A DNA stretch of 63,631 nucleotides from Amoebophrya sp. A120 (Eukaryota > Protista > Dinoflagellata). Where the stretch lies: positions 310,001-373,631 of the forward strand of contig CAJINV010000014.1 in assembly GCA_905178155.1 (NCBI GenBank), read 5' to 3'. Under the pieces are notes generated by a model. That model was given only the letters and a program-made list of their open reading frames with translations, searched no databases and had not been told where the DNA came from. A program made the position numbers and the translations under genes. Shown one piece after another: positions 1,191-52,253 of this stretch. Within the stretch, counting starts at the first letter, position 1; each line of letters begins with the position of its first letter.

Positions 1191-4100
1191 CTATTCCGTG
1201 CCGAAACCGAGCACGTATCGAAAGGAAAAATCCCCCCTCCCCATATCGAAAACGAAATTTGTGATGCTGTATTTTTGTCATGCTAGAAGGCCAAGAGCCG
1301 CAGTCGTGGCCTCGTTTGCAGGCAATTTGTAATGCTGTTTCCCGCTCTCAGCTGCCTCCTATCATGCTGAAGGTGCAAGGCTTCCCCAAGCCACCCAGCA
1401 CTACAGTCCGCATCTTTTCCCGTGTAGCATGACAAAGCTGATTTGTGAAGACAAATCTGCATCACAGATTTCCGCTTTGATATGGGAAGGGGGGATTTTT
1501 CCTTTTGATAGCACGTCTTGCACGAACACTCCCGGCTCCAGGACCTCATCCGCAGCGGATATCAAAATGAAAAATCCCCCCTCCCCATCTCGAAAATGAA
1601 ATCTGTGACGCAGACGCCGGATTTGCGCACGCATTGATTTGTCTTGCGGTAGAGGACTGCACGCAGATCGCAAGCCTAGATAGGGGCCTTTTGGTGTAGG
1701 CGCCTAGCATGATAGACGGCTGCCCTGTAGTTCTTACAGCATTACAAATCGCCTGCGTGGCGTGCTGGCAGAGAGCCTGGATGTGCCTTCTAGCAAGACA
1801 GACAGGATATGTGGTCACAAATCTGCATCACAAATTTTCAGAGGATACGTTTCAATATGGGCAGGGGGGAATTTTCCTTGCAATAGCAGAATTGAGAAAG
1901 TCCTGGTCCCCGGTGAGTGCGTGAAGGCACTGCTGCAATTCCTCGTCGGAGAAGTGCTCGCACGCGCCCACTATCAAATGCAAATATCCCTGGGCCACGT
2001 CTGGAAACTTGTGATGCTGGTTGACGAATCAAGAGGACGCCACAAACAACGGCTCAGCATGACAGATTTTTCACTTGCTAGGTGTGGTCAATCTCTATTC
2101 TGCATGAGAAGCTCCTGGGTAGTTTTTGCAGGACAGAAAGATGGCACGGCTTTTGGTTGCCGTGCATGACAGGCTTGACAGTCATGTTAGAAAAGCATGG
2201 CAAACCGGTGTATCTAGTATTTTTCCGGACCAAGAGGACATATTTGCAATGTATACCCACCAGGTGGTGCATCAGCTGTTTCTTGCTGCCCCCGTTCGAA
2301 GCCAGCATCACCGCGTGCTCGAGACTCGCGTTATCAACCTGGTTTATTCGTCATCATCTAATTTCACGCATAGATATTCATATTCTTCCATTATCCCGCG
2401 CTCTTGCAAACAAATTTTTAGCACACCCGCAAGAACTAGTTCGTTAATCGTTGAAGAAGTGGAATTAGTCATCCTCATCTCGTCTCTAGGTGTAGGTCTA
2501 GGTGGTCACTGCTCGAGCTTTTTTTATCTTTTGCACCAACATCTCATCTTTAAGGAAATATTTTACCTGAAAAACAGGCCTGTGATTCACGTAGAGCTGC
2601 ACAAAGTCCTCGAAATTTATGTGGGTGAGGTTCTTTTCCGTGTACAGATGCTTGCCCTTTACTTCGGATATCATGTTCGCGATCTCGGTCTGTGTGGGAA
2701 AGCACCCGAGTGCACACATCAGATAGGGGATTTCCGAGAGGGGTATTGTCCCGTCCAGCTGATACCTTTCCGTCGTTTTCTCACCGTGCGACCGAATTTG
2801 GCAGTAGTAAAAATAGTCCCGGATTTCCGCCAGAAGATCTTCTTCCAGCAAGTTCAGATACGGCTGTATCTTTGCGGAATTGGTCACCGAGCTGCTGCTT
2901 GAGGACTGGCTCACACTGCTGCCGCGCAGCACCGCCAGACTTACCGCCTCTGTGTCGATTTTCCACATGTTCAGCGTCAGGTCCTCCCCCCCGAGAGAAA
3001 ACGCGTATTTGCCCTGTGGGTCCACGGAAATCGCAGAAATCAGGCCGGGGTGCGCTATCACCCCCATCTGTCGGAAAGGGTTCCCGTCGAGTGGTTGCTG
3101 CAGCAGGCCGATTACCTTTAAGACAGGATTTTTTTGTGCTAGTGAATGACTTACATTTATCTCCCAACTGCCCGGTTTAGGGTTTGTTCATGTTCTATAG
3201 GACTTGTACAAGAAGAATTTTGTTGCCTTTCATACAGCACATATTCCCGCACCCGCAGCAAAGGCTACTACTACTTATACTTTTTTACCTTGCCATAATT
3301 CTTTCTACATGGCATTTAGTCGTGCAAAAAGAAGAAACTACACCTTCTCCTTTGTCGCGTACAGTAGGAATTCTTCTGGTGTAGACTCCCCTGGAATCGC
3401 GATCATTTTGCTGACTGGACCGCCGTAGGTCGGCGCGAGACTCGTTCTCCGGCAACTGCGGTTCTTGAACCACGTCTTAAACTTGTACTCCGAGGTCGAC
3501 ACGACCAACCCGCCCCCTACTGATATGGCGTTCTCAACTGTTACATTCTCAACGGTTACATGAATTTGTCATGCAAGAACAGGAATATGGAAAGGGGAAA
3601 GATTGCACGTGTTGCATCACAAATTTGGCACGGATTTAGATGCTGTTTAGCCCTTCGATAATTTGTCATGCGAAGCAGCTTGATTGTCTTGCGGCTCATG
3701 GTCATTTTGCATGACAAATCATGTAACAGCTGAGAATGTAAGGTTTGAGAATCCCATATCTGAGCTCGCGGCTGCCGCTGCTGCTCCTCCCTTCTTGGAC
3801 GTCGCGCCGCTACTGGTTGCGGGGGTTGCGCTCGAGGACTGTTGTTCGATGTCGTTCACCAAATAGGTCAACCCGGTCGGCACCGCCTCTTGCTCGACCA
3901 TCGTGTTGGAGAGTATCGGAAATCCGACGTGCTCTTCCTCGGGGTAATCAGCTGCGAGCGGGCACTCGTACTCGACCAGCTTCCGGTCCTCCGCCAGGGA
4001 GTAGAGTCGTGGCCTCTCGTGGTCGGAGGCAGTGGCGGAGAAGACCAGGCCAACAACCTGCTTCCAGTGGCTGCGGTGCTTGCCCGCCGAGATCCACGCC

Positions 4101-7100
4101 TTGGACTCGCCCGAGCGAGTCAGGTCGTACCGGTACAGCCATACCTGATAAAATGTCTTAATGTTTCTGTTTATGCTGTAGATGTAGTTGTACAACTTCT
4201 ACTTCATACATGTTCATCTACAGCTCGTAACGAAAGGTAAAAATGCGTGGCAATTTTTGTGCAGCAGCGCTGCATTCATGAAGATCATGCATGAACTTGA
4301 TATTTGTTTTGCAAAAATGCTGGTGCATGTGCAACTAACACACGAAAGTAGTACACGAAAGTAGCTTACTCAAAAACTTTTGCTTGATAGCATAAGCGGC
4401 AATAACCTCTTCAGCACGACAAGTACAGCTTTTAAGTATAGTGAAAACTCTGTACCGACTTATCTGCGTGGGCCACGGCCAGGTAATTCGAGCATTTCGA
4501 GAATGCCAGGTGCATTATCCTGTGCAAAAGTAGTATCGCACTCGCTCCGGTCCGTGCAAATTGGAATCATGCGTGACATCAAAGGTGGCCAGGTCTTAGA
4601 ATTATGAGCAAGCAAAAACATTTCATTTTTCCTTCTGAAAATGAAATCTGTGTTCCGCTTTCCACCAAGACAGAATGCGATACAACTTCTGCAACTGCAT
4701 ATGCGTGACGGGCTCTCGATTTTCCCTAAACTGCGCGATTTCGGTGAGTTCGGCGTTCAAAATTCGGATATGAAAGTGCACAACTCCCCCTCCCCCTCAT
4801 TTGTATTGCATGAACCGCAATACAAGCGTCAGCAAGAGTACGGGTTTTGCATGACAAATTTGGACAGGAGTGCAGTGTTATTTGGGCTGCCAGAACTTGT
4901 GATGCAAACAGTCCTAAGAGCCAAAGCGTAAGTTACGTATCTTGCATCACAAATGAGGGGGAGGGGGACTTGTGCACTTTCATATCGGATCTGCCCGTTC
5001 GTGAACCCCACGGCTAAGAGTCCGCTGGCGCTGTATTCCAGAATTTGCGGAAGAATCTTTTCGAAGATTTTCACGGTCTGGAGTGTTCTCGAGTGGTAGT
5101 TCCAGAGGTGAATAAACCCCGAAAGACCCGAAACCGCAACTAAGGGCTCGGACGGGTGGCAACAAAGCCCATGGACGGGAGAGTCGAGACCTGTATTGAT
5201 AAATAGTACAACTTCTCCGTGTGGTCTGGCCGTCGATCGTGGAGACCTTCTTGGGCTTGATGTACTTGTACGTGCCAAGCCCAAGTACAAAGTTACACTT
5301 ACATCCTCGTGCATCAATACGAAAACGAATAAGGTACTTACATCAGTGGCTAAGTACTTAAAAAATCCTACCTTGCAGCACCAATCGTCCCCTCCTTTGC
5401 TGCGGCTCCAGCTCGAAAAACAAATCCGACTTGCAGGCTACTACCAGCGCGCTCGCGGTGGCGACAATGAAATTTGGGCATGAGAACTGGAAGTCCGTGG
5501 ACCCGCTCTGTTCTGTATGCATTAAAAATTACACGTCTGGGCCTGAAATTCTAGAGGTGCAAACTGCACACTATGGATCACACAATCAAATTTTGTCTTT
5601 GTGATGTGATTATCCTTATCCACAGGACACATTGACATTACAACTACAGGAAGTCCTCTGTACTAGTTCAACACAACACGTACTTACACATGGAGCAAAA
5701 TAATAAACCGGTCAGTTTTTGCTACACGGAAACCGAGTGGGAATGTCAATGGCATCTCATGCGGTAAAAAGATACGCATCCATTAAAACGGGATTGCATA
5801 TGCAGGCGTGGGCCATGATACAAAATCTGCACGACAATAAAGAGCGTCAGCATTTGCATTGTTCATCTAGACCCAGATATAATATTTCTTGCATTTGATA
5901 TTCCATCGAGCTGGAGGAAAATCCATTGTTGCTGTCCATTTGAACCGAGGTGGAGTTCGCGAAGTCAAAACTGACGGAGGTGACACTTCCCGCAGACAAA
6001 TCCTCGAACCACGCTTGCAGACGGAATTGGGATATCCACTACAAATATCGATCTAGGTCTGGACGGGCAAGCATGCGCGTGTTTGTCTTGCATTTTTTTC
6101 GTCATGAACCACACAGGCGCTCGGTCTGGAATGCATTGCGCCATCAGTGAAGTAGATGAGCATCACAGATCTTGGGTGGATCACTTCTTAATGCCTGTCA
6201 TTCCGCATGACAGATTCGGATTCGCCATCTGTAGATAGTATCAAAAATGAAACAAGTTTTGGCACTCTGCATTGGTTAAACCCAGATTTTTGTGCGATCC
6301 GATCTATCATCCAGACTTGGCATGATAAGTTGACGCACCACCGCTCTTCCAGACGCAGTTCGACTACATTTGCAATGCGTATGGTAATCGTAGAACCTGA
6401 CTGCGCCGTCGGAGGAACCGGCCACGACGAAGTTGCCAAGGACTTTCAAAACATGCAGGGAAACTTCTGGCGGACACAAGCGCAAAATTTTCACAGCTCG
6501 TCGCTCGTCCGGCCGTGACAAATCGTCCACGATCAACGACAAGTCCCAGATGACAACGTCCCCGTCAAGTGTGGCGGTCGCGGCCTGGGTCGATTCGGGC
6601 AGGAAGATGGTCTGCGTGAAGTCGCCGACTTTCTGCTTGAAGTCCTTTGCGGCGAGCGCCGGGGAGTAGAATTGGAAAGTCATCTTGTCTTTCAGGCTCG
6701 TGTCGTTTTTTCCCCACTGCCAGAAAAACACCCGCCTTCGGCCGTTCGTGGCAATTTCGTGGATGTCCCACCGGTTGAAAATCTGATGGATAGAGATTTT
6801 TTAAATACTAATGTCAATATGGAAGTCAGTGCACAAATGAAGTTTGCGTCGGCCGCTTCCGCGTAGGATGACAAACACAAAAGCCTTCTGAAAAAATAAA
6901 CGAGAACTACTGCACTGTGCGAAATTATTGCTTCCCGTCGCCACAACGTGTCATAACCGTACTGACAAGTAACAAAAAACGATAAAATAAATCACAACCT
7001 TACCACGCACGTCTGCACGTCCTGCGTGCCGATGAGCGCTGTTGCGAGTGGCGCACTTGACTCTGAGGTCCAGTCCCACACGCTTAGATACTGGCGCATC

Positions 7101-8787
7101 TCCTCCCCGTCGTACTCCGGACTGGATAAAGTCGCTAAGTACTTGCTATCCGCTGTCATGTCCAGGGCCACGATCCCGTTTTTGTAAACGCTGTATGGAA
7201 CGATTCTCAAGCACTACATTGCTAGTTGCTACATAAAGATTTGTTCTCGCGTGGATTTGCCTGCAACATGCATCTTCCACACGATCAAGCTACTTGTTCG
7301 CATGACAAGTTCATTTCGAGCAGGAATGGCTAAACAGTATGGGAGTCTACCCTTGTGCCGAATTTCAAACACCAGAGGTGCATCTACATCTTCAGGGCCC
7401 CCCTTTCTTTATTCACTTTTGCTCTTCCTCTTCCTGCATCGCAGACTCATGCAAGACCTGACAGTGTCACGTTTGAGAGCTCCATATGTTGAACATGATC
7501 TTTATGGGCTTCCCCGTTGACCGGTCCCACACGGTGAGCCTGTTTGGTCGAATAACTGATATTCATCTTCTAGGACAGAGTATTTTCATCTCTTCACGCG
7601 GAGGTGAGTTGGGGGAAAAACACAAATACTACTTTTTACTTTGCAGGACCCCGCTACGTAGAAGTTCATCCTCAAATCGTTTTACTTCGTACTGCATGGA
7701 AGAAAAACAGCAACATCAACATAAAAAGAACTATCACATGGAATCCGGTCCGGTATCGGCGGTGACGATCCATTTTTTGTCCGTCGAGAGGTAGCTTGCG
7801 GTGATGGGATTCACGTGTCCCTGCAGTAGCTTCTGCACCCCCGATTGCGTGTCGTAAATGACCCCACTGTTCGCGCTGGGGTAGAAGATTTCGTTTCCGC
7901 CCAAATGGTATGGATAGCAAATATGTCTGGGTCTGGAAACTTGTGATGCAAGGAACAAGGGAATAGTGACTACTGTGTAATGCGCTGCCAAGCATGACAA
8001 GTTTTTCCGTGGTCCTGAGTTGCGTGCTCCGCATGAGAAACTGCGTGTCTGCATGACAGGCGCGAGGAGCTCTTCGCGGACACGCAATACAGACTTCGGA
8101 GTCATGCCAGATTAGCATGACAAATCTCGCAACCTCCCAGACCCAGACATATTTGCATTTGATAAATGGTGTACGCCATTTACGACGTCCTTGCTGAAGC
8201 CGCAGATCTATCCCGTGCAAAAGTATCCATCGCACTCGTATTGCAATCATGCATATACAAATCTTTTTTTGAGGAAAATCCGCATTACAAATTTCATTTC
8301 TCATGCTGAGGAAATTTGTAATGCAATTTGTACTAGTACGATACTTTTGCGGTTCATAAGATCCACTGCAGGCTCAACGCAGGCGACTCGGTCCCGACGA
8401 CGGCCGTCTGCTGCGAGGCAAACTCGGGCTCCGCACCCGGGCCGCTCGACGCAGCAGAGAGCTCTTGCACTTCCTGGGCCGGTATCAAGTGCAAAAGTGT
8501 CTGGGTCGGGAAGAGTGCAGACTTCTTGTCATGCATATTTTGTATGATGATTGATGCCTCTAATGCATGATCTAGCAACACAGATTTTTAGAGGGCTTCC
8601 TAATGCTTATTCCACATGAGAAATGCCCTCTCCGCGTAACACAGACTGGAATCCTGATGCTGGTCATGCAAAAATACAGATTTTTTTGGAATCCAAAGAC
8701 AGCATTACAAGTCGCAATCTTCCAGACCCAGACATTTTTGCAATCCATAGCCGGGTCCGACCCAACCGCCGGGTCCCCGCCGGCCAT
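1191..8787 (-). CDS. CFAP251: Cilia- and flagella-associated protein 251 (WDR66), multi-exon; about 12 introner introns plus several GT-AG introns
   Basis: Exons join in frame: MAGGDPAVGSDPAQEV..ALSLQWICGFSKDVVNGVHHLGGNEIFYPSANSGVIYD..LLQGHVNPIT..WIVTADTG; DGAVRFYDYQFRLQAWFE; GLCCHPSEPLVAV; PLDGNPFRQMGVIAHPG; EIRDYFYYCQIRSHGE..LMCALGCFPT..FVQLYVNHRPVF; ends VQDVLGFGTE* (TAG 1191-1193). These are recognisable WDR66 WD40 and C-terminal EF-hand-like motifs. Confidence 0.9.
1216..1510. mobile_element. Introner family C
   Basis: TIR tatcgaaaggaaaaatccccc..gggggatttttccttttgata; TSD gcacg; restores QDVL|GF. Confidence 0.9.
1560..1885. mobile_element. Introner family C
   Basis: tatcaaaatgaaaaatccccc..gggggaattttccttgcaata; TSD gcgga/gcaga; restores FLNSA|ADE. 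Confidence 0.8.
1972..2255. mobile_element. Introner family A (degenerate)
   Basis: tatcaaatgcaaatat..atatttgcaatgtata; TSD cccac; restores HLVG|ACE. Confidence 0.85.
3524..3758. mobile_element. Introner family D
   Basis: tatggcgttctcaa..ttgagaatcccata; TSD actga/tctga; homologous to 17944-18178. Confidence 0.8.
4516..4701. mobile_element. Introner family B
   Basis: tatcctgtgcaaaag..tgcaactgcata; TSD tgcat/tgcgt; restores VTH|LAFS. Confidence 0.8.
4769..4984. mobile_element. Introner family E
   Basis: tatgaaagtgcacaactccccctcccc..ggggagggggacttgtgcactttcata; TSD tcgga; restores GQIR|ILN. Confidence 0.9.
5516..5900. mobile_element. Introner family A (degenerate)
   Basis: tatgcatt..tctagacccaga..tgcatttgata; TSD ttctg/ttcca; frame restored. 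Confidence 0.65.
6033..6381. mobile_element. Introner family A (degenerate)
   Basis: tatccactacaaatat..atttgcaatgcgta; TSD tggga/tggta; restores FYDYQ|FRL. Confidence 0.7.
7194..7486. mobile_element. Introner family D-like (degenerate)
   Basis: tatggaacgattctcaa..ttgagagctccata; TSD cgctg/tgttg; frame restored. Confidence 0.65.
7909..8164. mobile_element. Introner family A
   Basis: tatggatagcaaatatgtctgggtctgg..ccagacccagacatatttgcatttgata; TSD aatgg. Confidence 0.9.
8209..8358. mobile_element. Introner family B
   Basis: tatcccgtgcaaaagtatc..gatacttttgcggttcata; TSD agatc; restores QWI|CGF. Confidence 0.9.
8483..8749. mobile_element. Introner family A
   Basis: tatcaagtgcaaaagtgtctgggtc..gacccagacatttttgcaatccata; TSD gccgg. 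Confidence 0.9.
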
Positions 8788-9942: not shown

Positions 9943-12900
9943 TTATCCTGCTCTCCGCGCCTTGCCCTCCTCGTCCTGCTGCTCCTGAAACAAGACCTGT
10001 GGTGTCTCTGCGTCCCACGCCCATGCAAGTTGTGGCGCTGCAGAATCACTCTCTACTTCCGCTTCAAGATCATCTTGTCCCGGATTTGTTCCTGTTGCTG
10101 CAAATGCGGACTCTGGTGCTCCTGTTCCTTCAGCTTTCGGTGTCGCCTGATTTGTTTTCCCGTCACCAAAATTATTCCGACTGACGACCTCGACGAGCCC
10201 TGTCAGCGTTGCGAGCAGACTCGCACACACGCCCAGGCCGAAGATCATGTACAGAATGGCGACCATATCACAGAAAAAAGTTTTAACGTTTGGCAACGGA
10301 ATTTGTGATGCAGAAATGCATCCCAAAACGTGCCAAAATTTGTCATGCATAGCATGCATGCTAGGCAAAATTTGTCAATGCATTTTTGCAATCTGTGAAA
10401 ACCGTTAACGTTACCACTTTTTCCTGTGATAGACCACGCGGGACAGGTTCGAGCTCGGCGTGTAGTCGCCGAAGCCGATATCGTATAGGAAAAATCCTCC
10501 CTCCCCATATTGAAAATGCATGCGCCTGAAAATTTGTGATGCAGATTTGTGGCCACAAATCCTGTTTGTCTTGCAAGAGCGCAAATCTAGAGAGTCCGCC
10601 GCACTATGTAGGCGGTTTGTGATGCTGTTGGGTCTACAGCATAGGCGTTTGCCATGCCAGGCTCGGCATATGCCTGCAGTTCTGCTCTACTGCAAGACAA
10701 ATGTGATTTGTGTATCCAAATCCAGCATCAGAAGTTTCGTTTTGACATGGGGAGGGGGGATTTTTCCTTTTGATAGCCGACGGCAGAGAGGGTCACGAAG
10801 CAGAAATACAGGGATTCCAAAAACGTCCAACTCGGCTCCAACCGGTGAAACAACGACGCGCCGAAAAGAAGGAAAGCGACGAGAAGGGAAATCAGGAAGA
10901 GGAGCCTGTTGAGAAACGAATTGGTATGATTGATGAAGAGAAATTGATATTAATATGTTCGATTTGACATTTCTGTCATGATAAGCCCCTGCTGGTTGTA
11001 GTGCCACCAACACCTGGAGGATAATCTTCCCGTTCTACTACAGTCTTCTTGTTTCAATACTTGTCAAGCTCACGACATTTAGTACTTGACATCTATGAAG
11101 GCCTAAGTCCTTTGTGCAAGAAGTCTTCGTGGAACAACAAGCAACCCCGATAGTACCTGCTGTTTTTGCTCTGCAAGTTGACGACTCTGGCCTTCGCACC
11201 AACCGAGAACCAGGCTTCGGCGATCAGGAGCAGGTTGAAGGCCATGATGGGCAACCCCACCTATCAAATGCAAAAGTGTCTGAGTCTGGAAGAATGCAAG
11301 ATTTGTTATGCATATTTCTCATGACCCATGATGCCTGTAATGCATGACCTAGCATCGCAGACATTTAGAGGGCTTCCTGGTCATGCAATTTCCGCATGAG
11401 AAATGCCCTGTCCGTGTAGCACAAACTGTACCCCTCTTGCTGGTCATGCAATGCAATTTCGTTTAGAGTCCAAAAACAGCATGACAAGTTGCAATCTTCC
11501 AGACCCAGACACTTTTGCAGCTCATACCACCACCCCGAAGGCGATCGTCAGCATTTGTCCGCCGGAAGTCACCGGATGACTGTGCCCGTAGCCGATTGTG
11601 GTTGCGAGACTGTATCAAATGCAGATGTGCCTGGGTCTGGAAGAGTGCAGAAGTTCGTCATGCAGGTTCTGGATGCCCCAAAAGGTCTGGAATGCGGGTC
11701 TAGCATCACAAAACTTGAGACAGCTTCTCAATGCCTGGTCCGCATGACAGATCGGCTGTTTTGGTTACAAGATATGGGCAACTTCTGCTTTCCATGCATG
11801 AGAGATTTTCGTGTGATCTGAAATGCGCATCACCGGTTGCAACTTCCAGACCCAGACATTTTTGCAGTTGATAGACTGGTGAGGAAGAACAAAGTCCCGC
11901 AAAAGGACCAGTTGTTTTGGTCCACCAGACTGTTTCGCCGGCTGCTCCGGTTTTTATCGCTTGAGCTAGTCTTGGTGGAGGATGAAATTCTTGTTTCTAT
12001 GCCCGTTTGCAAAGCGGAGCCGCGTGTGGAGATGTCATGCACGTTGCTTCCATTTTCGTTTTGTTTACTCATTTTTCTCACAGCGACGTTATTGAAGCCA
12101 TCATGATGATAAGAGTCGTGACCTGGGCGCGCAGGCTGGCGCTCGTCGTGGTGCGAAGGCGATTTTGCTGATTGGTGGTCCTCTTGTTCTGAAGATGTGT
12201 TGATAGCACGTTTGTTCTCAGTTGAATGCTCTTGTGTTATTTCAGTTGCGGGTACGGACGGCATCCTCGAGGAGGAGGGTGGTAAAGATGAAGCGAATTC
12301 TGGTATTATGCGTTGCTGTGCGTCCTCCTGTTCTGCTTCCGTTGCATCGTCGCCTGATGTTGTAGCAGCTTCACCTTCATCGCCTCCTTGCTGCTTTCCA
12401 AATAGTAGCTTCCGCCCCCCGAATCCAAACAGCTTTAGCTCCGCTGTCCGCGTTGCGATGGTGCTGAGTAAATCCGTCTTGCTTTTCACCGCTTTTGCTT
12501 CCGACTTCAGAAGCTCATAGTCATAATCAGCTCCGTTGTTGAAGTAGTCTTGCAAGGTTTCGGAAAATTTTTCTTGGTTTATGAAAGTGCACAACGGCTC
12601 CCGCTCGTTCTGCCGTCATTTGTCGTGCAAAGAAGCAACCTCAGCTCTTGCTTTTTGGCACTGCCTGCATGGCAGGTTCCAGCACCAGCATATCAAACGA
12701 TGCGATGGATAAACTGCATCTTTGCTGGCGCTTCTGTTGCAGTGCTCATGCAGACTGCCAACTGGGGGACAAAGTAGACGGGGAGATGTGCACTGTCATA
12801 TGATTCTTGCAGAAGGACAAGCCTTCGAAGGCCGGGTCGTTGCAGTACTCGAACTAGTATGCATTGTAAAAGTATCTTCGCACGGGCGGCGGGGCAATCG

Positions 12901-13211
12901 TAATTGCAATCATGCGTTACAAGTGTTTTTTCTACCTAAACGTAAAGGCAAATAAGTCCGCATCTTCACAAATTGCTGTTCTCGTCATGCTGAAAAAAAT
13001 TGTCATACGACTTCTGCCGGTACTACGATACTTTTGCACAGGATATGGAGTAGAGTTTTTTCATGGCCTTGTATAGCGCTCGGTTTTGCTCGTAAGTGTC
13101 CAACTCAGCCTGACGCTCCACGAGGGGGAAAACAATCACACCAGCGGTGTAGTACAGGGCGAGAAGAGTGATGGCGAGGCGCCAACGAGACTGCTGCAGA
13201 GGGGAGAGCAT
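9943..13211 (-). CDS. Two-pore-domain (K2P/KCNK-like) potassium channel, multi-exon
   Basis: M1 RLAITLLALYYTAGVIVFPLVE; P1 WSFCGTLFFLTSLATTIGYG; M2 GQMLTIAFGVVGLPIMAFNLLLIA; M3 LLFLISLLVAFLLFGASLF; P2 WTFLESLYFCFVTLSAVGFGDYTP; M4 VVAILYMIFGLGVCASLL. These appear only after removing 6 introners and a GT-AG intron (10906-11013). The 3' end is uncertain. Confidence 0.85.
10266..10431. mobile_element. Introner family F
   Basis: tatcacagaaaaaagt..actttttcctgtgata; TSD gacca; homologous to 15792-15965. Confidence 0.9.
10479..10775. mobile_element. Introner family C
   Basis: tatcgtataggaaaaatcctccc..gggggatttttccttttgata; TSD gccga; splits AVG|FGD. Confidence 0.9.
11262..11526. mobile_element. Introner family A
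   Basis: TIR as family A; TSD ccacc; restores GVVG|LP. Confidence 0.9.
11613..11873. mobile_element. Introner family A
   Basis: TIR as family A; TSD gactg; restores LTSL|ATTIGYG. Confidence 0.9.
12580..12800. mobile_element. Introner family E
   Basis: tatgaaagtgcaca..tgtgcactgtcata; TSD tggtt/tgatt. Confidence 0.8.
12858..13045. mobile_element. Introner family B with eroded TSD
   Basis: tatgcattgtaaaagtatc..gatacttttgcacaggata; flanks actag/tggag; frame restored with the same geometry. Confidence 0.7.
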
Positions 13212-14076: not shown

Positions 14077-17000
14077 TCATGCCCCAGTTCCCAACAACTC
14101 CTCGATCCGCATGGTTTGCTCGACCACTTTCTTCTGTAACCGCTGTTCCTGTTCCGAAGCCGCCGTCAGCTTCGTCTGCAAATGCGCCACCTCGATGGAG
14201 AGAGACGCTTGATCGGTCTGCAGCCGCTTGGCTTCCTCCTTGTAGCTGTGTGTTGGTTCTTGCTTGATTTTGTGTGGTAAGTTGGATAACACGTGGTCCT
14301 CCACATAAATGCATGAGCACCAGAGAAACATCACTAGATCAATATGACAGTAGGTGGAAAAGTACATTTCTGCCACGGCTTCCGACTCCTTTCTTTTCCT
14401 TCTTTCTGGCTCTAGCCACGCGTTTATCAACCAAAAACGTGCTCCTAACGCCACCAACGATCTTCACAGATTGCAGGCAGGGATAACATATTTTGCCTAC
14501 CATGGATGCTACACACTACAGATTTCAATTTTATCTTGTGTCTACGCATGCGCCCTTGCATCACAAAGTCCGTTGACGTTATTAACACGTTTTCTCGTGA
14601 TAGCTTCGACCGCTTCCGCCGGTACAGTTTCGTAGACGGAGTACAGCCTAGCAGACAATTCGTCATTCAGCTCGTACTGCTTCTGCAGCAGGGATTTATC
14701 CGATGCAAAAGTATCAGTCTCGTACAGCCTCGCTTGACAGACACAGATCTGGGCTTTTGCTACCTACACTACATGCATGTTGTTACAGATTGCGCCTATT
14801 TTCATCGTGCTTGTGGCAAAATTTTCATGCGAATTCTACTAGTCCGATACTTTTACTTTTGCAATGCATAAGCTTGTTTGGACAACAGTTCTGCCTTGTA
14901 CTGTTCGATGAGCTGGTATGCAATACAAATTATTCCCGATGAACTACACACTCACGCACAAAATACATGACAAATTTTCCTAGCTTCACGATCGGCACGA
15001 CTTGTCAATGTCTATGTCATTTATGTCACTACTACAATGCGGACAAAAATAAATCGTGGTCATGCAAGTAGACTACAATGCGGATGGGATAATTTCGGGA
15101 TCAACTTTACTGCGGATAGCTGGCCTTGCTGCTTCTTCTCCATCTGGTCCAGGTCCAGCATCTGATTCTTCTGCTGCAGTAACTGCGAAAATTCCGTTTT
15201 CGTCTGCAGCTCCTGTTTCAGCGACGCGATCTCGGATAGTAAATTTTTCTGGTATGATTCGTACCTGGTGTATCCTGTGTAAAAGAACTATCGCATTAAT
15301 GTGACGAATTGCAGCCACGTAAGTATGTTTTATGACGGGCGTGCGTTGATACCTGAGTCTGCATGATGTATCCGGTTTTTGTTCAGTATCATTTCTTTTT
15401 CTCTTGGAAACTTAAATGACTTGTGATGCAATTACAACCTAATGCGATAGATCTTTTGCAAAAATGCATAGAATGCACTTGTCGTTGATTTCCGCCAAGT
15501 CCGAGACTTTGGCTTGGAGGGCGGACATGGTCTGCGACTGCTCCTTCCTCAAATCTTGCAGCTTATCCTGTGCAAAAGCATCGTACTAGTAGTTGTAATT
15601 GCAATACAAATTAGCCCAGCATTAGAAATGAAATCTGTAATGCGGATTTACCGTAAGAAAACAAAAAAATTTGTAATGCATAAGTGCAAGAAGTACTACG
15701 AGTACGATACTTTTGCAGAGCATACAGCTGCTTCAACAGCAAATTCTCCCCGGCAGGCATTAGCAGTGCTTTCTGGTAACTGTCCAGCTTCTATCAGAAG
15801 AAAAAGTGTATAGCGTTAACGGAATTTGAATTTGTCACGCAGTAATGCATCGCAAAACGTTCCCAAATTTGTCATGTATGGCATGCATCCTGGGCAAAAT
15901 TTGCTATGTGTATTCGCAATGTATGAAAACCGTTTCCGTTAACGCTAACACTTTTTTGTTCGATAGCTTCTGCAATTGCTTGTCCTTCTCCGCGATGAGG
16001 TATCCACTTTGGAAGAAAATTTTTACCGTACAAGTTTATATACTGGGTATAGAGGGCGGCCAGTTTTATTCATGACAGAACCGATTTCATTCGGCATGAC
16101 AAAGTCGCTTTTTTTCTCTAGCCTGTCGGAACAAGAATTTGTTTCCACTTTATTGATTCTCCGCTCCTGTTCCGGAGTGTTGTACGGTATCTATTGGTAG
16201 TAGTTGTAGTACTTATTTTGTTTTGCATATTATGATCTCCAACTCTTTCTTTTCCAACTCCAAGTCGGACAACTTTCCTGACTTCGCCGACAATTGCGTG
16301 TTTAACTCCTGCTCCACTCGGTTGCGGCTTATGCATGGCAAATTTCAACCGTTCTGGCGTGCGCGCGTGCAATTGCGATTTGACAAGAGGGGTTCTGACC
16401 AGCATAGCTGCACTAGCTCACTCAGCAGTACAAGTTCACCTGCGTAGTTTCAGATTCAGACAGTGGCAAAAATTGTCATCGTACATGTTTCTTTATCGTC
16501 GATGCACGGTGATGAATTGGAGAATTGAAATTTGTGATGCGTACGGCCCATCACGTTGGAGTCCACGTCGGTTTGCAGTTCTGTGATCCGCTTCGTCGAC
16601 TCCCGATTCTCAATCTTCAGCTCGTCACAGAGGATGGTTTGCTTCTTCATCTCCTTTTGCTGCTTCTGGTTCGTTATGCACTGCAAAACCAAATCAAAGT
16701 ATCGCACTAATATTTATACTAAAGCGCATCAAAAATGAAAGACGGAATCTGTAAATAATGCATTTTCAGGTAGACAACCCATACGAGTGCGATATTTCAT
16801 CATCTGTTGCACAGGATATTCGCATCGACGAGCTCCTGGATGCGGTTCAAGTCCGTCACGGCCTGCTTTTCCAGTTCCGCAATCCGCGTTTTCAACACCT
16901 CTTGGTGCTTCTTCAACATGGGGATTTGGTTATCCTTGCAATCGACCAGCTCATTGGAGTGCTTCTTGATCTCTAATTTCTGCGTCTCAATAGTGTCCAG

Positions 17001-28654: not shown

Positions 28655-28729
28655 GACACAACAAGAGCAGTTGCTTTAGTTGAGAAGTTGAAGTATGCTT
28701 ATACCTCCAGATGTACAAAAATACAACCA

Positions 28730-35260: not shown

Positions 35261-38200
35261 CTACTTCCCCTTGCCCTTCGCCTTCCCCTGCGCAAATATT
35301 TCCGCAACTCTCTTGGTGTTTTTCGGCGCCCGTCCGATCAGATTCAACCCAGATGGGCCGACGGGGTCGATCCAAGCGGTCAGAAGGGTTTTGCTCTCCT
35401 GGTCTCCACCTCCGACCGGCACCGCGTGCAACAGGTAATACCACACCTCCCCAAGCTGGATCGCGATGAAGTTCCCTGTTGTTAATATTTGCGGTCTCGA
35501 AAAAATGTTTTGTCACGGAAGACAAGAACCCTCATCGGAAAAGCCATAATCAAGTAAACCAGGTAGTGAATCGCGGGAGTGGTCGTAGCTCGAGAGAAAA
35601 TGGCAGAGAAATAAACGTGATAGAATTAGCCAAGTCTTCAACTCAAGGAAAAAGAAGTCTGCATCTACTAGAGAATGTAAGTGGATGAAGATGAGACATG
35701 CGCAAAATAATACGAATGTATAATGAGTTGTACGCTTCTGCTCCACAAGCCCACGAATTTGCGGCGGTAGGGTGTGTAAGCTCTCCTCAGAAACCATCAT
35801 CTGCTTCGGTAACACCGCCTGGATCTGTTTGATCTGGCTCTCCGCGCCGGCCCGGGGCCGCTCATTTGGATCCGGTTGTACTTCCTTTCGCACTGCAACC
35901 TCTAAGCTCCGGAGATCCATCGGGTCCTGCAATCTGAAGATCATTCCCGCCTCTGTCACATTGTGCAGGAAGAAGTTCAAGTTGGCTGCTATGCCCTGCT
36001 CAACTGGATGAACAAAAATCTCAACCGGATGAAAATAGTGCAAAGCCTAAACTTGTCTTGCATATTAAAGCGGGCAAGACTACTACCTGCTCGACGTCCA
36101 GGGGTCGTCGTGCATGACAAATTTACCTGTGCAAGTTCCAATGCAGAGTTTGGAGGAGCCTCATACTATAGCTGTACTGCTCAGCTCCGTGATGGCTGGA
36201 GCTGGACTGATCCTCGAGAGCACTCTATGGAGTCGCAAACTTGATCGATTTCAGACCATTCCATTTGAGCAGGCCATAACTTCCTCCTTCTTCTTGATCA
36301 CCTCCGGAACAAGGAAATCGAACTCCTGGTAGTCATATTCTGCGCAAAAGAATCGCACTCGCACAAATTGCAAACATGCAAGACAAACCCCCTTCCTGAG
36401 GTAAATCAGCAAGACAAGACTTCTCATAGTTCATACTGTGCAAGGGATTTGATGTGATGGTCTGGCTAATGCTAGCGCGATAGTTTTGCACTGCATAACT
36501 CGAAGAGCGAATAGGCTTGGCAAAGCAAACGGCTTTGGTCTGGCTGCTGCGTGATGCACTGCAAATGTGCCGTCTGGGCCTGGAAACTTGCGATGCTAAA
36601 TGCTGACAGGGAGAACTACAAGCATAAAGCGTTCTTGCGGACGCCTCCCAATAGATACGGTGGCCCGTGCGCACAAGGCGCTTTTTTCATTCATAAACAA
36701 AAGGGCGGCTCCTCTCTGTCGCCCGGTGCAGATTTTCCAGATATGCAAGACATGCGGCACAACAAGCGCCACGCTTCCAGACCCAGACACATTCGCAGTT
36801 GGTAGGCGTGTTGACTGGCATTTCGAGCCCGAGGCTGCATCTCTGGTTCCAGAGCCTTTTATCTTGGACAATAATGGCAGGCGGTGGGGGGCCCTAGTAA
36901 TTTGGTAGCTTTACAGGTTCCAAATAATTCAGAGTAGTACATGCTTACACCGTATTGGATTGTGTACACTTTACTTGCACTTTCTTCAACCCACAGCAAC
37001 GTCACTCAGCACTGCACTGACGGCGTCCGGCATTGACAAGTCCGAGCGAAGACTACTTACACAGCCACCTGGGGATGACAAAGAAAAAAGGAAGACGGTG
37101 ACGGGCATAAGTTTACCTTGCCCTTGCTTCCCTTTCCAGCACAGGGGTCCGCTTTCCCCTTGCCCTTCAGCGCCATCGCCTCAGCCTTGCCTTTGCCGCC
37201 CTTGTCGTTTTTCTCAAACGTCGGGGACGATCCACTCATTCCGGCTTTACCTTTGTCCAGGGACGAAATCGACGCTCCGGTCTTGTTTACCTGGATTTGA
37301 TTGATGTGCGATCAAATCTCCCACGCAAAATGGATCAGCACACGGAGGAGCCGCATTAACAATAAAGGACACGACGGAGAAGTACATCGGGCTATGCAGT
37401 GTCCCCTTGAAAGTAGAAAAATCTGCATCTATGGCAGCAAGCGCCTCATTTCTTGTTCGTAGAATGAAATTATATGAGTACGTCCGGAGATGATATCTCG
37501 TTTTCCCCGTCATCCGCGCGCGTGCTGCCCGGGCTGGCGTACAGTGCAGCGGATACCGGTTTTTTTTGCTTTGTATGCATTGCAAAAGTATCGCATTCCA
37601 TTTCTATTTCATTGCTGTAATTGCATCACAAATTTTTCCTGCAGAAGCAAAAATAAATAAAAAAGGAAACCCAAAAATGCAGTTGCAGTGCTGACACAGG
37701 CCATCACAGAGGAGATTAAGATTTGTCATCCAGTATCGCAATTCGAAGTAGTACGAGTGTGATACTTTTGCAGTGGATACTTTTCAATTTCATCCGCGTC
37801 TGGCACTGAGGAGGATTTTTCCAACATTTTTGTCGGCGGCGCAGTCGCAAAAGTGGAGTCTTCTTTCTCGTCGATAAAAGTGGAGTCGTCTTTCTCGTCT
37901 TCCGTACAGATTGAAAAATGCTCAGCAGCAGGCTTCTTCTCTTTCTCTTTTTGCAGGAGCTCTTTATCGTCGTCGTCGTCCTTCGTGCCTGGAGCAGCGC
38001 CGTCGTAGTAATTGTGCTTGTTGTAGTTGTTCTTGTAGCTCGACGTCGTGTCTTTGTTCTTTTCCTCGTAGTTTTTGTAGTAGTTCTTGTAGGAATTGTT
38101 GTAATCGTTGGTAGTATAATCGTATCCTGCATTTTTTTCAGCTGGGCCTGTGGTCTCCTGCTTTGATGATGATGCCATCTGTGTCGTCTTGTAAGAGTTC

Positions 38201-43300: not shown

Positions 43301-43402
43301 AAGTGACAACGTGGCAATGGTCCTCCTGCTCACGTGGTTCATCTCGTTTTGTACTATGGCTGGGGGTGGACATCAATTTTGAATTCTTACATCCCAGTAA
43401 GA

Positions 43403-46400
43403 TCAACAATGAAACACCTGGACCCTGGGTCCCGTGGTGCGGCAAACCGGGCACTTCGTGGGCTGCAAGGACTTCCCGGGCTGTTTTGCCTTGCGCAAAT
43501 CGTGAATGTCGAGATCGAGTGCGCACTCGCTGCAGAGTGCGAGGTGACGGCAGTTGGTGAATAGCTCCGTCGCAATACTATCCATGCAAATCACGCACTT
43601 GCCGACCGCCGCTTTGTTGTTTTCTTGCGCCTGCTGGTCATCGTGAATCTCGTCGCAAAAATTATCTTCACTGTCATCATCTTCTTCACCCGTGGTACTA
43701 GTATCTACTTCCGAAGTTGGAGAAGTCGCGGTGTCGTTCTTCATTTCGATGTCGTAACCTCCGGAAGAAGCTGCGGATGTGGACGTGGCACCTCCTGCTC
43801 CAGAAACCACCGCGCCGATGGAAGTAGATGCAACGAGCGCACTGCCGGTGGTTTTGTATGCATGGTTGTAGTCCAGCATCGGGTCCCTAAAGCCGTTATC
43901 TGTGTGCTCCCCCAAGTAGTGGCTCAGGTCCGACCGCGTGTAGTAATTTTTCGCGGAGAAGAGGGTAGTATTTTTGCTGCCGCTCTTCTTTTTCCGGCCT
44001 GCAGATCGTTTATTCCCCCGCTTGCCGTTCTTAGGTATATTTTTACCTCGATTGTTTTTACCATTAAATGCCCGGACGAGTGCCCCGTTCGAGGTTAGGG
44101 TTACAACTTCGTCGTCTGTCGTTATTATGTTCGTGGTCTCTACTATAACAGGCTCAGATGTCGAATTCAAAGGATTTTGAAAAAAATTTTTTAGCTTGCT
44201 AAAGCGCCTAAATACTTAAACTTTAAATAGCTACTTATGCATTCTAAGCTAGTTAGTTCAGGTTCCGGTAGGTTCTTTGCGGATGCGTGCGCATCCGCAA
44301 AGGACCTACCGGAGTCTAAGTTAGCTAGTTTAAAATCACATCATTTAAAAAACTAGGTAGTTTTTGAAGGCGCTTTCGCTAGCTAAAAAATTTTTTTCAA
44401 AAATGTTTGAATTCGACATCTGAGCCTGTTATATCTACAGCTCCTGCTTCGCCGAAGCTGTTACTAGTACTTCCCCGTCGCCGCCGGTTTCTGGTGGAAG
44501 ACGAGCTTTTATTTCGGCCATTATGCCGACAGGAAGAGGAGGAGGAGGAGCTGTTCTCATCTTGCTGGGCAATAGTATGCAACAAAAATTCACCGACACC
44601 GACACCGTAGCCATTGCTAGATGCACCCACAAAATGCAACATCACAAGAAATTGTTCTTTGCCATACAGCAGGCTAGTACAACTTGCCGAGTTGAATAAG
44701 CTTGTGGAATTACAAAGTTGTTACTTCATGCAGAAACTCAACTGCAGAACTTGTACGTCGTGCACGGGAAAAGTATGAATTTCGCTGTGGATAAGATAAG
44801 GGCTGTGCACGGTCTTCACCAGATCTCCGCCCACCATTTTGTTCATCGGAGGCTACAGCTGCCATCGCAGACGAACTACTTTGCCGAAAGCTGCGACGCC
44901 GGGTGCTGTACTGGTAGGTGCTAGCGGCCGCCAACGTCAGTGGTGGATAAGACCCGTCGACGTCAACCACGTCTGAGATCGAGGCTCCGAAAGCAGTAGA
45001 ACTAAGACTATTGCTATTGTAACCAGCGGCCGCGTTAAAAAAAGGACTACTACCAGCACTCCCGGGGTTCATGATGTAGTTCCTGTTCGCCCTACTGCTT
45101 CTGCTTCCCCCGGCGCCGCCGCCGCACAGTTGTGGTCCCCTTGGCAGCGCTTTCTGGTCCTCCTCGTCTTCACAGGCATCGTGGTAAAAGTTCCGCTCCA
45201 GCTCCCGATTACACATCTTCGCCTCGAATTGCTCCGACAGCTCCTCTAGCCGCTCCACTTGCTTTTTGCGATTGAAACTCAAATTCTTCTGGTGCTGGGC
45301 TTGCTGGGCGCTCAGGGTGCTGCAGGCGGAGAGCGTGGATCGCCGTGAGCTGGTGATGCTCCCGGAGTGGTTGGAAGATATGCATTGCAAACATGTCGGC
45401 GTCTGGATTTGTGACGCGAAATTGGAAAGACAGCGAGGATTTATGATGCATATTAATGCTGTGTCATGCAAGCCTGAGGATCTTCACAAGAAATTCGCTG
45501 CGTCTTATCTTTCCAGACCTAGACATTTTTGCACTTCGTAGAGGAAGTTGCAATGCCATTGGGCGGAACCACAGCCACTCCTCCGGAAGTAGTCGTGGTG
45601 GCCGTCGGTGGTTGAAGATCTTCTTGGCGCTCTTCTCCACGCTGCAGTGGCAGGCCCGCCCCCTGTAGCGATGAATTATTATGCTCATCAATATTTCCAG
45701 TGGTAGTGGTACTACTATTCAGGTCCTCGTGCTGCAGCTGTCCCTGTCGCTCTTGATGTAATTCAACTGGCGGTGCAGCGGCAGGAGATGATGGCTGTTC
45801 CTCCGGGGACGTAGTAGTAGTAGACGAGCCCTGGAGCTCATCATGTTGAGCCGCGGAATGTGGGGCGATCGCAGGAGGAACTCCTTCCGCCTCCGCTGGA
45901 GCAGTTGAAGTGGTGGTCATGGGCATGGCGGCTGTAGCAGTTGAATTTGAAGCTCCAGGAGCAAGATTCGGATCCTGAGCGGCGGGAGAAGCAGACACAG
46001 CACCGCCGGTGGAGATCAATGCCGGTACCACCACATGTGGATTCGCGGCCGTCGTCGACGTCGCCCCCATTGTACTATTATTTTCTGTGTGAGCCGTGCT
46101 GGAGCTGACACTGTTCACGGTGGCATTCGTAACCGCTGTGAAGGTACTAGTCGCCACTGTAGTGGACGAGCTGGAGGGTAGTTCTCCTCCGCTTGCTGTT
46201 GCAGCTAAGTGGCGAGAAGGTTCTTGAAAAGCGACGACGTTGTTTGCACTAGTGTGAGCTAAAGTCGTAGTCGGTCTGCTTGATGTTGTCGTACTAGTCG
46301 AGGGCACAGTACAACTTCTTGTGGGGGCCGCTGAGTCATTTAACTCGTGGTCATCATAATTTTCAATACCTTCTGGTACTAGAGTTGTCACCGCAGCTTC

Positions 46401-49133: not shown

Positions 49134-49688
49134 GATGATTCTAAAAGGACACGAAAGTAAGGTATTTCATCTCGAGCTGGACATCTCCACGAGACGAGCG
49201 CGTAGCTGAACTTCTTTTTCCATCTTCTTTCGAGTGTTGAACAGAACATTCGTAGTAAAGTTCCAAAAATCACACGAGTCCATCCCTCCGACGCCTCAGT
49301 ACTGGTTGCTTTTCGTACTTCTTTCGAGATTACTCAGCTTGCTCTTGTTTCCCTGCACGACGACTTTTGCAACTGATCACTGCTTCGAGGGTTCTTGTCG
49401 AGGAGGCCTCCCACATTTTCACTTTAAGAAGACTGCACTAGTTCTTCCTCGATCTTCATGTAAACGTCGGGTAGTAGTTATTTTTCTTTCTGGACACAAT
49501 CAATGGTCGTGCAAGTTGCACACTGCTTTTCGCATAAATGATTTGATGTCTTTCACGTCGACGGCTGTGAGAAGTTGGTGAAAGTAGCGCTGGCTCGCGT
49601 CCTACAGATAGACGTGGTTCTGGTAGTACCTCCAGGTTCTTGTTCCTGTCTTGTTACAAGTGGTTCCCGCGGCGGCCCCACCCGCTTT

Positions 49689-52253
49689 TCATTTGTCCTT
49701 CTTGGTTTCTTTCGCAGTGGCAAATTTCTGAACGGGCAGTCCGATTTCTTCGTCGGCGCTCCGCTTCCCACAACAGGTGGAGATGCAAACCACACAGGAC
49801 GGTATCACCTGCAAAAGCAAAAGCTATTCGTACGCTTTTGCACTTTTATGTATATGCAACCTTTCACAATACTTACTGCCGCACTAATATTAATACAAGT
49901 CTCGCCTTTTTTATCCCTTTCGTCTCGGAATTGCGAAGCTGTACATAATGTGCTTTTGCAGTTGCAATTCATAAACAGGATACAAAATCCAAAAACCGCG
50001 GTCATGACAATGACCAGCACCACCACCGTCGCTGCCGCGTGCTCCTCGGTTGGCCGGGCGCCGAGGATGTCCCGCTGGGCCTTCATCAGAACATCCTTCT
50101 ATGGGGGTGTCAGGATCGAAATCGTCAAAATCGAAAAAGTTGTGATGCACAAAATCGATGCCAGTTAGACCCACAGTTTGTAGTCGGCGCATGACAAATT
50201 CTCCCCATCCTGGAGGCGAATCTGTCATGCGGGTTGGGGCAAAAGGGCTGCCTTCTGTCATGCTAGTCAGCAGCCCAACACTTAACCCTTACCAGGACTA
50301 CAATCCGCCTTCCTTGCATCCTCTGCAATAGGGTCGCTTTTTGCGTAGCATTTTATGCATTACAGATCATTTCAACTTTGACGATTTCAATCCTGACGCT
50401 TCCATACCTTCGCGTATTCCTGTAACGGAAGCAAGTGGCTCGCCATTGTGGCGCTCGCAGAGGCAAACATGACTGCTTATTCTTGTCCTTTTCTATTCCT
50501 TTAGACGATTGGTAGACACGAGAAAAACGACGAAAGCAAAAACTGTTGCCTGCCCCACTCTCGTATAAAATCTTTGTGGATCTGCTGTTGCATGCAGTTT
50601 TTCTTTTTGAGCAATGAATACTTCTCTTTTTTTCATATACTCACTCAGCGTCAGCACTGCCGTGTTACTTTCCGTGCGCACATTTCTTTGCGAAAAAAAC
50701 TGAAGCATGAAAAAAATTCTTCACAAGAAAATGAAAAAAAGCATGGATCAAAAACTTATGCAGCACAAAGATGTGGCGTGCCAGTGAAACGGGTCGACGT
50801 AGTTAAGACTGTTGCAAATCAATGTTGAAGCCGAAAGAAGAAGCACCAGTACGACGACCGAATCGAATGATGTAATCCAGCACCAAAAAAAAAAACCAAC
50901 ATCAATGGCGATACCACGACGCTATTCGGTGCCCGCTTTTGCAGTCGAAGCCTTAGCGTTTGCTTGTTGTAAGTGTACGCCAAATATTAGAAAACTTCTT
51001 TTCTTGAGCAGCTGTGTTTAATCAATGAAATCCGCGGTGCTTCTCAAAAACACAGTCCTGAGCTGTGCGGTACAAAATGATACATCCCGTAAAAATGCTG
51101 CTATGCTTCTTGTTGCAATGAGCAAGTCATTCCTCTTCTTGCAGTTGCGTGGCAAAGTGTAAATTTTGAGGAACAACCTCAAAACAGGGTACTTGGCGAA
51201 CGTTAAAAACAGGGTATCATGCTGAGTCGCGCTCGCAGCCTTATTGCAAGGAACAGTGGAAATGCATTCTTTTCCGTTCTTTCCTTTTACTATTTACAAA
51301 ATAGTGCAACTTTCCAAGTCCTCGCTCGCTCGCTTTTCCATATCAAATGCAAATATGTCTGGGTCTGGAAGATTCTAAACTTGTGATGCTGTCTCCGGAT
51401 TCGAAAAAGATTTGTATTGCATGACCAGAAAGAGAACTCCAGTTTGTGCTCCGCGGAAAGGGCATTTCTCATGCGGAATAGGCATTACGAAGCCCTCTAA
51501 GAATCTGTGATGCTGGGGCATGCATTACAAACATCATGGGCTGTGCAAAATATGCATGACAAACCTGGCAATCTGCCAGACCTAGACATATTTGCAGTTC
51601 ATATTCCATCATGTGCACCATTTTCGCAAATCGCTCCTTTGCCTTCTCTATCCTGTGCAAAAAGTATCGTAGTAGTCGAACTTGCACTACAAATGTTTCC
51701 AAGAGCGAAAATGGAGTTTGTAATGCTGATTTTGCTTAGGAGTGGGATTTGTCATGCATGATCGCAATTACCACCAGTACGATACTTTTGCACAGGATAT
51801 TCTCCTGGTCGTAGCTTTCCCCCTGTTTTTCCTTCTTCTCCACCTCGAGGTCGATGTACTCCGCGACGATTGCCCTCTGCTTCGCGTGGAGGCTTTCGTA
51901 GCGGTATGAGACTACACAACTGGTGCCTCTCTTCGCTCCTGACTTGAAAGGCGGGAACAGCAATAGAAACGCCTACAAATAACATCAACATGGAGCCTCA
52001 GCATGACAAGTTCTTAATTATGCGACGCATGTATCAGTAATAGTTTGGCTGCTTCCGGAATTTGTCATGCAAACACAAACAGCGCCACAAGGACGATTGG
52101 AGTTGGTGTTTTGCACGAGGGAATCGTGCATGAGAAGAACTATCTAGAGGAAGCTGTGCACTCTCATAAGCGTTGCTGGAAGTTCAGATTTGCCTCCTCA
52201 TCCATCGCGGGAAGCGACGGGAGACGGCTACACAGCTCGGAGTAGGCCACCAT
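49689..52253 (-). CDS. Hypothetical protein with C-terminal transmembrane helix, multi-exon
   Basis: In-frame joins FQQR|YESLHAKQ, YDQEK|AKERFAKMVHMME|KRASE and EYAKD|VLMKAQR..VVVLVIVMTAVFGF across introners. Middle exons and start are uncertain. Confidence 0.55.
50100..50406. mobile_element. Introner family H
   Basis: ~37-bp TIR tatgggggtgtcaggatcgaaatcgtcaaa..tttgacgatttcaatcctgacgcttccata; TSD ccttc. Confidence 0.9.
51341..51603. mobile_element. Introner family A
   Basis: TIR as family A; TSD ttcca. Confidence 0.9.
51649..51799. mobile_element. Introner family B
   Basis: tatcctgtgcaaaa..ttttgcacaggata; TSD ttctc. Confidence 0.9.
51905..52168. mobile_element. Introner family E-like
   Basis: tatgagactacaca..tgtgcactctcata; TSD agcgg/agcgt; restores QQRY|ES. 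Confidence 0.75.

Follow-up and report, generated by a model that had tools for sequence, protein, structure and literature searches.

Amoebophrya has tens of thousands of non-canonical introns, some of which lie in a 63,631-nt stretch of Amoebophrya sp. A120 DNA (assembly GCA_905178155.1, contig CAJINV010000014.1, positions 310,001-373,631, forward strand), referred to below as the window. The original prediction held that the motif TTTGTVATGC recurs in otherwise unrelated families of such introns (introners) and marks a binding site for a common trans factor, either a transposase or a splicing factor. Our analysis indicates that the motif probably represents a putative array of double-stranded-DNA binding sites for a common transposase or cofactor mobilising these families, rather than a splice signal.

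By means of inverted ends and flanking duplications, 45 elements with terminal inverted repeats (TIRs) and target-site duplications (TSDs) were delimited in the window (11,303 nt in total), the typical form having TAT...ATA ends and a 5-bp TSD. Exact matches to TTTGTVATGC or its complement number 38 in the 63.6 kb, whereas dinucleotide shuffles gave a mean of 0.58 and a maximum of 3; this strong enrichment bears out the predicted recurrence, and all copies named in the prediction had been placed to within one base (1275 is 1274). Thirty-seven of the matches fall within the 45 elements. The 38th, at 16094, falls in what is probably a decayed element (near 16001-16232), one of three probable further decayed introners (the others at ~14246-14400 and 38290-38400) with ends that could not be fixed. 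An exact copy is present in 23 of the 45 elements, compared to a mean of 0.27 and a maximum of 1 among dinucleotide-shuffled elements. Family A, for which close variants had been listed, has exact copies too, e.g., at 8115, 11703, 17463, 22740, 51522 and 60034. With a weight matrix derived from the consensus sequences of the families (score of at least 10), we obtained densities of 11.1 per kb within the window elements and 0.19 per kb outside them. One matrix match and no exact copy occur in the 1,367 nt of the six GT-AG introns defined by RNA. The motif is thus rare outside the elements and in GT-AG introns, in keeping with the judgement by eye, and its absence from a 1088-bp and a 290-bp element was likewise confirmed, neither having a matrix match.

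The sample was extended by scanning for the family A end pattern, which yielded at least 148 loci (L001-L148) from one other assembly, comprising 620 kb of non-redundant DNA that favours family A by design. This sample holds the same families as the window and does not overlap with the window exons. Automatic detection, requiring a TSD match at three or more of five positions, found 447 elements, 347 of them with a perfect 5-bp TSD; run on 200 kb of simulated DNA, it produced no false positive. Together with 15 window elements set by hand, they form a set of 462 elements, of which 52 remained singletons and the rest grouped in 15 multi-copy clusters. Consensus analyses refer to clusters 0-13 (14 families), cluster 14 (two A-type copies) and the singletons being left out; families A, B, C, E, H, D and F correspond to clusters 0, 1, 3, 4, 6, 7 and 9, respectively. 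The elements are short and non-coding, possess TIRs and a fixed TSD, and are inserted in both orientations, as is characteristic of MITEs (miniature inverted-repeat elements), or non-autonomous TIR DNA transposons. The motif density in the 620-kb sample is 11.8 per kb in element-like DNA and 0.26 per kb elsewhere. By weight matrix, 445 of the 462 elements have at least one copy, and each of the 14 family consensus sequences holds two to seven. When k-mers in element interiors were counted without a seed, CATGACAA and GCATGACA ranked highest, being present in 10 and 9 of the 13 groups assigned by hand, and the consensus sequences give the fuller form (A)YYTGTVWTGC(A).

The description of the families as otherwise unrelated needs to be amended. 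They have in common the TAT...ATA ends and the 5-bp TSD: all 28 consensus ends begin with TAT, and A occupies positions 11-14 in 20, 22, 26 and 25 of them. Consensus pairs align at z>4 in 70 of 91 cases when unmasked versus 7 of 91 when motifs and ends are masked, the masked links joining clusters 3-6-11-7 and 11-4-5-2-10. Global identity between the consensus sequences has a median of 0.48 and a best value of 0.61, so mere inheritance of the motif by full-length homologues, which would have undermined the prediction, is not what we found. The families thus look like one patchwork superfamily. Against this patchy background the motif stands out, its core columns being conserved at 0.87-0.99 versus 0.64-0.90 in the spacers, with the higher value on the motif side in all 13 families tested (cluster 13, with two copies, was left out).

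The spacing of the copies is often regular. Same-direction copies lie 31-33 bp apart, i.e., three turns of DNA, in 13 of the 14 families, whereas 5,000 random placements gave a mean of 2.2 families and a maximum of 8. The fourteenth family has same-direction gaps of 95 and 97 bp; since the families are partly related, the 14 cases are not independent. No column in the spacers of such pairs exceeds 0.7 bit, and a weak reverse half-site stands midway in many pairs. Among the 21 consensus ends with an inward copy, 20 have the first one starting at a tip distance of 31-33, 39-45 or 52-54 bp. This distance also jumps within families by about one helical turn: at the left end of family A it is 32 bp (54 copies) or 40-41 bp (84 copies), and at the right end of family C it is 42-43 bp (5 copies) or 54 bp (14 copies), the next gap staying at 31-33 bp in both families. 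No report of helical phasing of subterminal sites was found in the literature searched.

The tips themselves rarely contain the motif. A motif site is present in the terminal repeat in one of the 28 consensus ends (family B left), the other 27 scoring below zero, and in element G (16330..16543), where bases 4-13 of each terminal repeat are the motif. The match originally reported at 16531 is therefore real, although it sits in the terminal repeat itself rather than in the interior. These two cases may hint at a shared origin of the motif and the tip site. An equation of the published TAT-N7-AAA end with TAT plus the reversed motif was rejected as a general rule; it holds for one of 28 consensus ends only.

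Evidence on removal comes mainly from the first gene of the window, a CFAP251-like host gene on the minus strand (1016..7800, ends approximate), one exon of which is 100% identical over 182 amino acids to an Amoebophrya sp. A120 protein related to CFAP251. Two contigs (X1 and X3, from one sample) supply its joints; they were taken to be of RNA type, a status that is guessed and that no record assigns to them, and they also lack six GT-AG introns. Of their 46 joints, 15 were shown, and nine of these skip exactly one element plus 5 nt (window 1209-7488), which restores the pre-insertion sequence. Two raw RNA runs (X8 and X9) had almost no coverage apart from a paralogous element. Assuming one register for all nine introners, the mismatches in their TSDs confine the cut on the transcript to 1-2 nt ahead of TAT and 4-3 nt past ATA, as is seen in the decayed introner 7194..7486 (two copies), where mismatches put it 1-2 nt before TAT. 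There is no preference for GT or AG in the TSD flanks. Two of the nine removed elements are poor in motifs: the decayed B-type introner 4516..4701 has no strong copy and two weak ones (the joint skips 191 nt, element + 5), and the decayed A-type introner 5516..5900 has its sole matrix match in the terminal repeat, with no internal copy (the joint skips 390 nt). The motif-free 1088-bp and 290-bp elements also appear to be spliced, to judge from their reading frames, the evidence from RNA or DNA runs being confined to the first 18.6 kb of the window. Removing the 1088-bp element (26715..27802; TAC...GTA ends, 5-bp TSD) plus 5 nt restores frames of 658 + 291 codons, and the same operation on the AT-rich 290-bp foldback element (44144..44433; TAT...ATA ends, perfect 5-bp TSD) restores 244 + 96 codons, whereas removal with 4 or 6 additional nucleotides fails.

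Whether the motif acts on DNA or RNA was addressed through its symmetry relative to the transcript. Codon use at each locus gave a transcript strand for 434 of the 462 elements; in the window, where every gene examined is on the minus strand, the calls at element level were right for 38, wrong for 5 and blank for 2. The motif lies on the sense strand 864 times and on the antisense strand 838 times, and no family has a preferred insertion orientation. In a set of 347 copies that were identified independently of their ends, motif change rates do not differ by transcript strand (7.3 vs 7.1%, p 0.63) or by intron half (p 0.26). The positional check proposed along with the prediction likewise gave no bias of the motif to either intron end, end-most copies being changed at 5.1 vs 5.4% (p 0.70). 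The motif therefore lacks the transcript-strand or one-end bias of a strand-specific splicing signal. In the same 347-copy set, the terminal bases are asymmetric: T1 is changed in 3 copies at the transcript 5' end versus 17 at the 3' end (p 0.002), and A2 in 1 versus 8 (p 0.04), among 16 positions examined, of which position 15 also reached p 0.005. This asymmetry demonstrates that the test is able to detect RNA-level selection, and the TA at the 5' end may act as a signal on the donor side in this species, where no U1 small nuclear RNA (snRNA) has been found. The seven motif copies of cluster 5 all point in one direction, the cluster is inserted seven times in sense and ten times in antisense, and the copies have a predicted RNA self-pairing of 0.00-0.03, yet they are conserved at 0.93 versus 0.75. 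Taken together, these results favour a role of the motif at the DNA level, in mobility, over a splicing factor. The common trans factor of the original prediction is thus supported by the occurrence of the motif in all families, its conservation above the spacers and its 31-33-bp spacing, with the splicing-factor option being less favoured.

Mu and Sleeping Beauty transposons carry subterminal arrays of transposase-binding sites. Such arrays are usual in DNA transposons, including piggyBac and piggyBat, with the hAT elements Ac, Tol2 and Tag1 and the TnsB sites of Tn7 also cited in the portion of PMC11707139 consulted. The introner motif resembles subterminal repeats in being multi-copy, conserved above the spacers and placed near the ends, with mid-element copies also present. 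As in the arrays described there, several short copies lie inside the ends and may be kept by selection on mobility; unlike them, the introner motif is common to families with different terminal repeats, extends through the whole element in both directions and is paired at 31-33 bp. By analogy with piggyBac, hAT and Tn7, protein copies would bind along the same face of the helix, at sites three turns from each other and with the first site ~31, 41 or 52 bp inward of the tip, and would help to pair the element ends in a synapse; a cut staggered by 5 bp would then produce the 5-bp TSD. Selection on the motif would act in jumping copies and the motif would decay after insertion; its density does fall with TSD decay (17.5, 14.9 and 9.4 per kb). 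Splicing would be guided by the ends, namely by the paired terminal repeats and the TA at the transcript 5' end, the cut falling at a fixed 1-2 nt ahead of TAT and 4-3 nt past ATA.

Several observations weigh against this mobility array. Statistical support for the tip phasing is modest (p ~0.04 when each family contributes one end, and 0.1 once linked families are pooled), and periods of 9-12 are indistinguishable. The copies are spread through the whole element, and in family B they point outward near both ends rather than only inward. The motif columns were picked from the consensus, which somewhat inflates their conservation, and the trend of density with TSD decay is confounded by hand-picked decayed elements and by family mix. 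A direct within-family age test with TSD mismatch as the clock gave an extra divergence of ~0.01 and had too little power. The core G of ATGC is as stable as the splice-side T, with changes in only 3 of 498 sites, and several copies per intron could mask selection on any single one. RNA pairing of motif with motif is predicted in 13 of the 14 families (0.19-0.90). As for the enzyme, a Pfam search with the longest frames of the 1088-bp element and of a 1104-bp element (L019:505-1608, 238-codon frame) returned nothing, and the loci contain no TIR/TSD element of 1.2-12 kb. Finally, in the text consulted of Farhat et al. 2021 (PMC7789003), no transposase is reported for A120 and general mobilisation by transposases is rejected.

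The predicted pairing is also the starting point of an unlikely alternative, in which the motif aids splicing at the RNA level, with inverted copies folding the intron or a 3' copy serving as the branch point. Both orientations of the motif contain a U-n-A-y core, and inward copies at both ends would supply a 3' copy in either insertion orientation. Moreover, the accessible text of PMC7789003 states that U1 snRNA was not found in A120, so a new splice signal is to be expected. However, the motif lacks the asymmetry that the terminal TA has, both by strand and between 5' and 3' ends; candidate branch positions are altered as often at one end as at the other; pairing is impossible among the copies of cluster 5; in family A, the variable base does not match between one end and the other (0.29, against an expected 0.45); and introns without a strong copy are excised or restore the frame when removed. 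Nor does pairing explain the fixed 31-33-bp spacing of direct copies. An Rfam scan of the window had no matches, hence no known small RNA is present there.

About equally improbable is a host DNA-binding or chromatin protein that recognises the motif whichever strand it is on and tags the element to be removed co-transcriptionally, perhaps also serving transposition. It is consistent with all of the symmetry and spacing results, with the near-invariant G, and with the lack of a known transposase in A120. It is at odds with the continued removal of decayed and motif-free introns (some by reading frame only), with core changes in 136 of 498 end-most copies and with the rarity of the motif in the rest of the 620-kb genome sample. 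In a slightly less probable version, one host or domesticated DNA-binding protein would both mobilise introners without a conventional transposase and flag them on DNA for removal from the transcript; if so, a strand-independent 'splice me' mark would replace the missing U1 snRNA. Least probable, and already strained, is a functionless leftover of an ancestral 32-bp tandem unit spread by internal duplication and interfamily recombination: the common ends, the masked patches of homology and the weak reverse half-sites fit it, but the motif is far better kept than the spacers in every tested family, the spacers within pairs hold little information, and the pair spacing persists while the tip distance varies.

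The window elements correspond to the A120 introners described in the available text of PMC7789003, i.e., ends of TAT + 7 nt + AAA, direct repeats of 3-5 nt, non-canonical junctions and a length of ~240 nt; they share with them the TIR that begins with TAT and continues into an A-run, the direct repeats, excision outside the GT-AG rule and repetition in families. The introners of A25 have TTA ends. In the rows seen of Gozashti et al. 2025 (PMC12130899), most A120 entries are 'TIR DNA, superfamily unknown', with a TSD of 5 for some, and the family lengths match those found here (106, 149, 208, 214-227, 252-260, 305 and 319-349 bp). Family 38 of that paper is integrase-like. The internal motif, its spacing, the element + 5 excision and the 5' TA bias do not occur in the searched text of PMC7789003, the figures of which (including Fig. 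S19-S25) could show the motif. The motif is also absent from the passages and rows seen of PMC12130899, and family A strings from 13 of its 14 supplements; the parts consulted of PMC9860276, PMC11282704 and PMC12005148 do not mention it either. Relative to these portions of the literature, what is new is the internal motif with its spacing, the removal of exactly element + 5, and the 5' TA bias; the introners themselves are published.

From ends and TSD only, our guess for the mobilising enzyme is an integrase-like DDE protein. The passages seen of PMC10045372 and PMC2836005 describe TA..TA ends and a usual 6-bp TSD for IS3EU/GingerRoot, TNT..AYA ends and a TSD of 4, 15 or 25 bp for IS481EU, and TGTNR ends, a 4-5-bp TSD and a Gypsy-like integrase for Ginger2/TDD. 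The A120 elements share with these three groups a T-rich tip and a short fixed TSD, and no integrase-like DDE family listed there combines TAT...ATA with a 5-bp TSD. Each of the three groups departs in one defining feature. Two assignments were rejected: IS3EU/GingerRoot fits by its ends, but the TSD is 5 bp instead of the usual 6 bp, and Ginger2/TDD fits by TSD length, but the ends are TAT and an integrase is lacking. No transposase or autonomous partner was found in the 620 kb and the window. Nonconventional introns of euglenids, as described in the part consulted of PMC11282704, are alike in being bounded by TIRs and TSD-like repeats and in having junctions set by structure rather than GT-AG; they belong to another lineage and have other end motifs, and no internal spaced motif is mentioned in that part. 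In viral contigs, the family A end pattern had no matches, and the 31-33-bp motif pair had 50 single matches, four of which were inspected (blastn, structure), showed no likeness to elements and were taken as chance. A likeness to the animal Sox-Oct composite site was rejected as unsupported.

The introners are given below without strand. In the CFAP251-like gene, which has nine introners and six GT-AG introns among the joints shown, the remaining seven include two members of family C, each with five copies. In 1216..1510 (TSD gcacg; the RNA-type contig skips 300 nt, element + 5) these are at 1258, 1274 and 1326 (plus) and 1427 (minus), with one CTGT variant, and the joint over 1560..1885 skips 331 nt (element + 5). 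They are followed by family A at 1972..2255 (four copies, joint skips 289), family D at 3524..3758 (four copies, the first 42 and 41 bp from the ends, joint skips 240), family E at 4769..4984 (five copies, the first 32 bp from both ends, joint skips 221) and a decayed A-type introner at 6033..6381 (four degenerate copies, joint skips 354), which leaves the introner at 7194 described above.

Downstream of this gene, family A is represented by 7909..8164 (five copies, with a pair 41 and 72 bp from the right end), 8483..8749 (three copies), 11262..11526 (pair at 41/73), 11613..11873 (four copies), 17336..17600 (six copies), 22702..22971 (pair at 39/71; removal + 5 opens 1227 + 472 codons), 51341-51603 (six copies), and 59822..60083 and 62707..62983 (each with a pair at 39/70), as well as by a short A-type introner at 45379..45540 (pair at 30/62). 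Family B comprises 8209..8358, where the copies at 8282 (minus) and 8315 (plus) point outward near the ends, 15564..15724 (three copies), 17668..17823, one end of which is mutated to CAT, 24803..24948 (two copies), 51649-51799 (three copies) and a B-type introner at 37574..37779 (two copies). Members of family F were found at 10266..10431 (copies at 10302 and 10339), 14425..14602 (one copy, 14558) and 15792..15965 (two copies), a further family C introner at 10479..10775 (pairs 55/87 and 42/75 bp from the ends), a second family D introner at 17944..18178 (four copies) and the family H introner at 50100..50406 (five copies, the first 40 and 41 bp from the ends). Decayed introners include two of E type at 12580..12800 and 51905-52168 (two copies each), a B introner at 12858..13045 without strong copies, where the frame is kept when element + 5 is removed, and a motif-free B-type one at 16675..16818, next to which a piece of an RNA-type contig starts at 16819. 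Others lie at 14697-14870 (no copies), 14917-15118 (two copies), 15271-15470 (one copy), 35990-36278, 36336-36497 and 36553-36804, and a motif-free decayed element at 49803..49973.

Some further features were noted beside these elements. The 1088-bp element has inverted arms of ~160 bp and nested GGGGC...GCCCC inverted repeats at 27135-27367. The 1104-bp element L019:505-1608, with TAT...ATA ends and a perfect TSD, has motif copies near its left end only and a GC-rich repetitive interior; it is possibly a deletion product of a longer element. At the end of the window (63508-63631), a near-perfect hairpin accompanies a 106-bp TAT...ATA element that is motif-free by eye and has the length of a published palindromic family. 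A stretch of ~1.1 kb at 48016-49135 lies between ~45-bp direct repeats (48016 and 49086) and contains GC-rich and short tandem repeats, and a ribosomal protein L30e-family exon is located at 56762-56987 on the minus strand.

For the biology of Amoebophrya introners, the motif suggests that a single protein serves the many 'families', which would then form one superfamily, and the common spaced 10-mer provides a defined bait for catching the missing mobiliser. It also separates two jobs within these introns: the internal motif likely serves mobility, whereas the terminal TA and the paired ends likely serve splicing, by which the gene is restored to the base.

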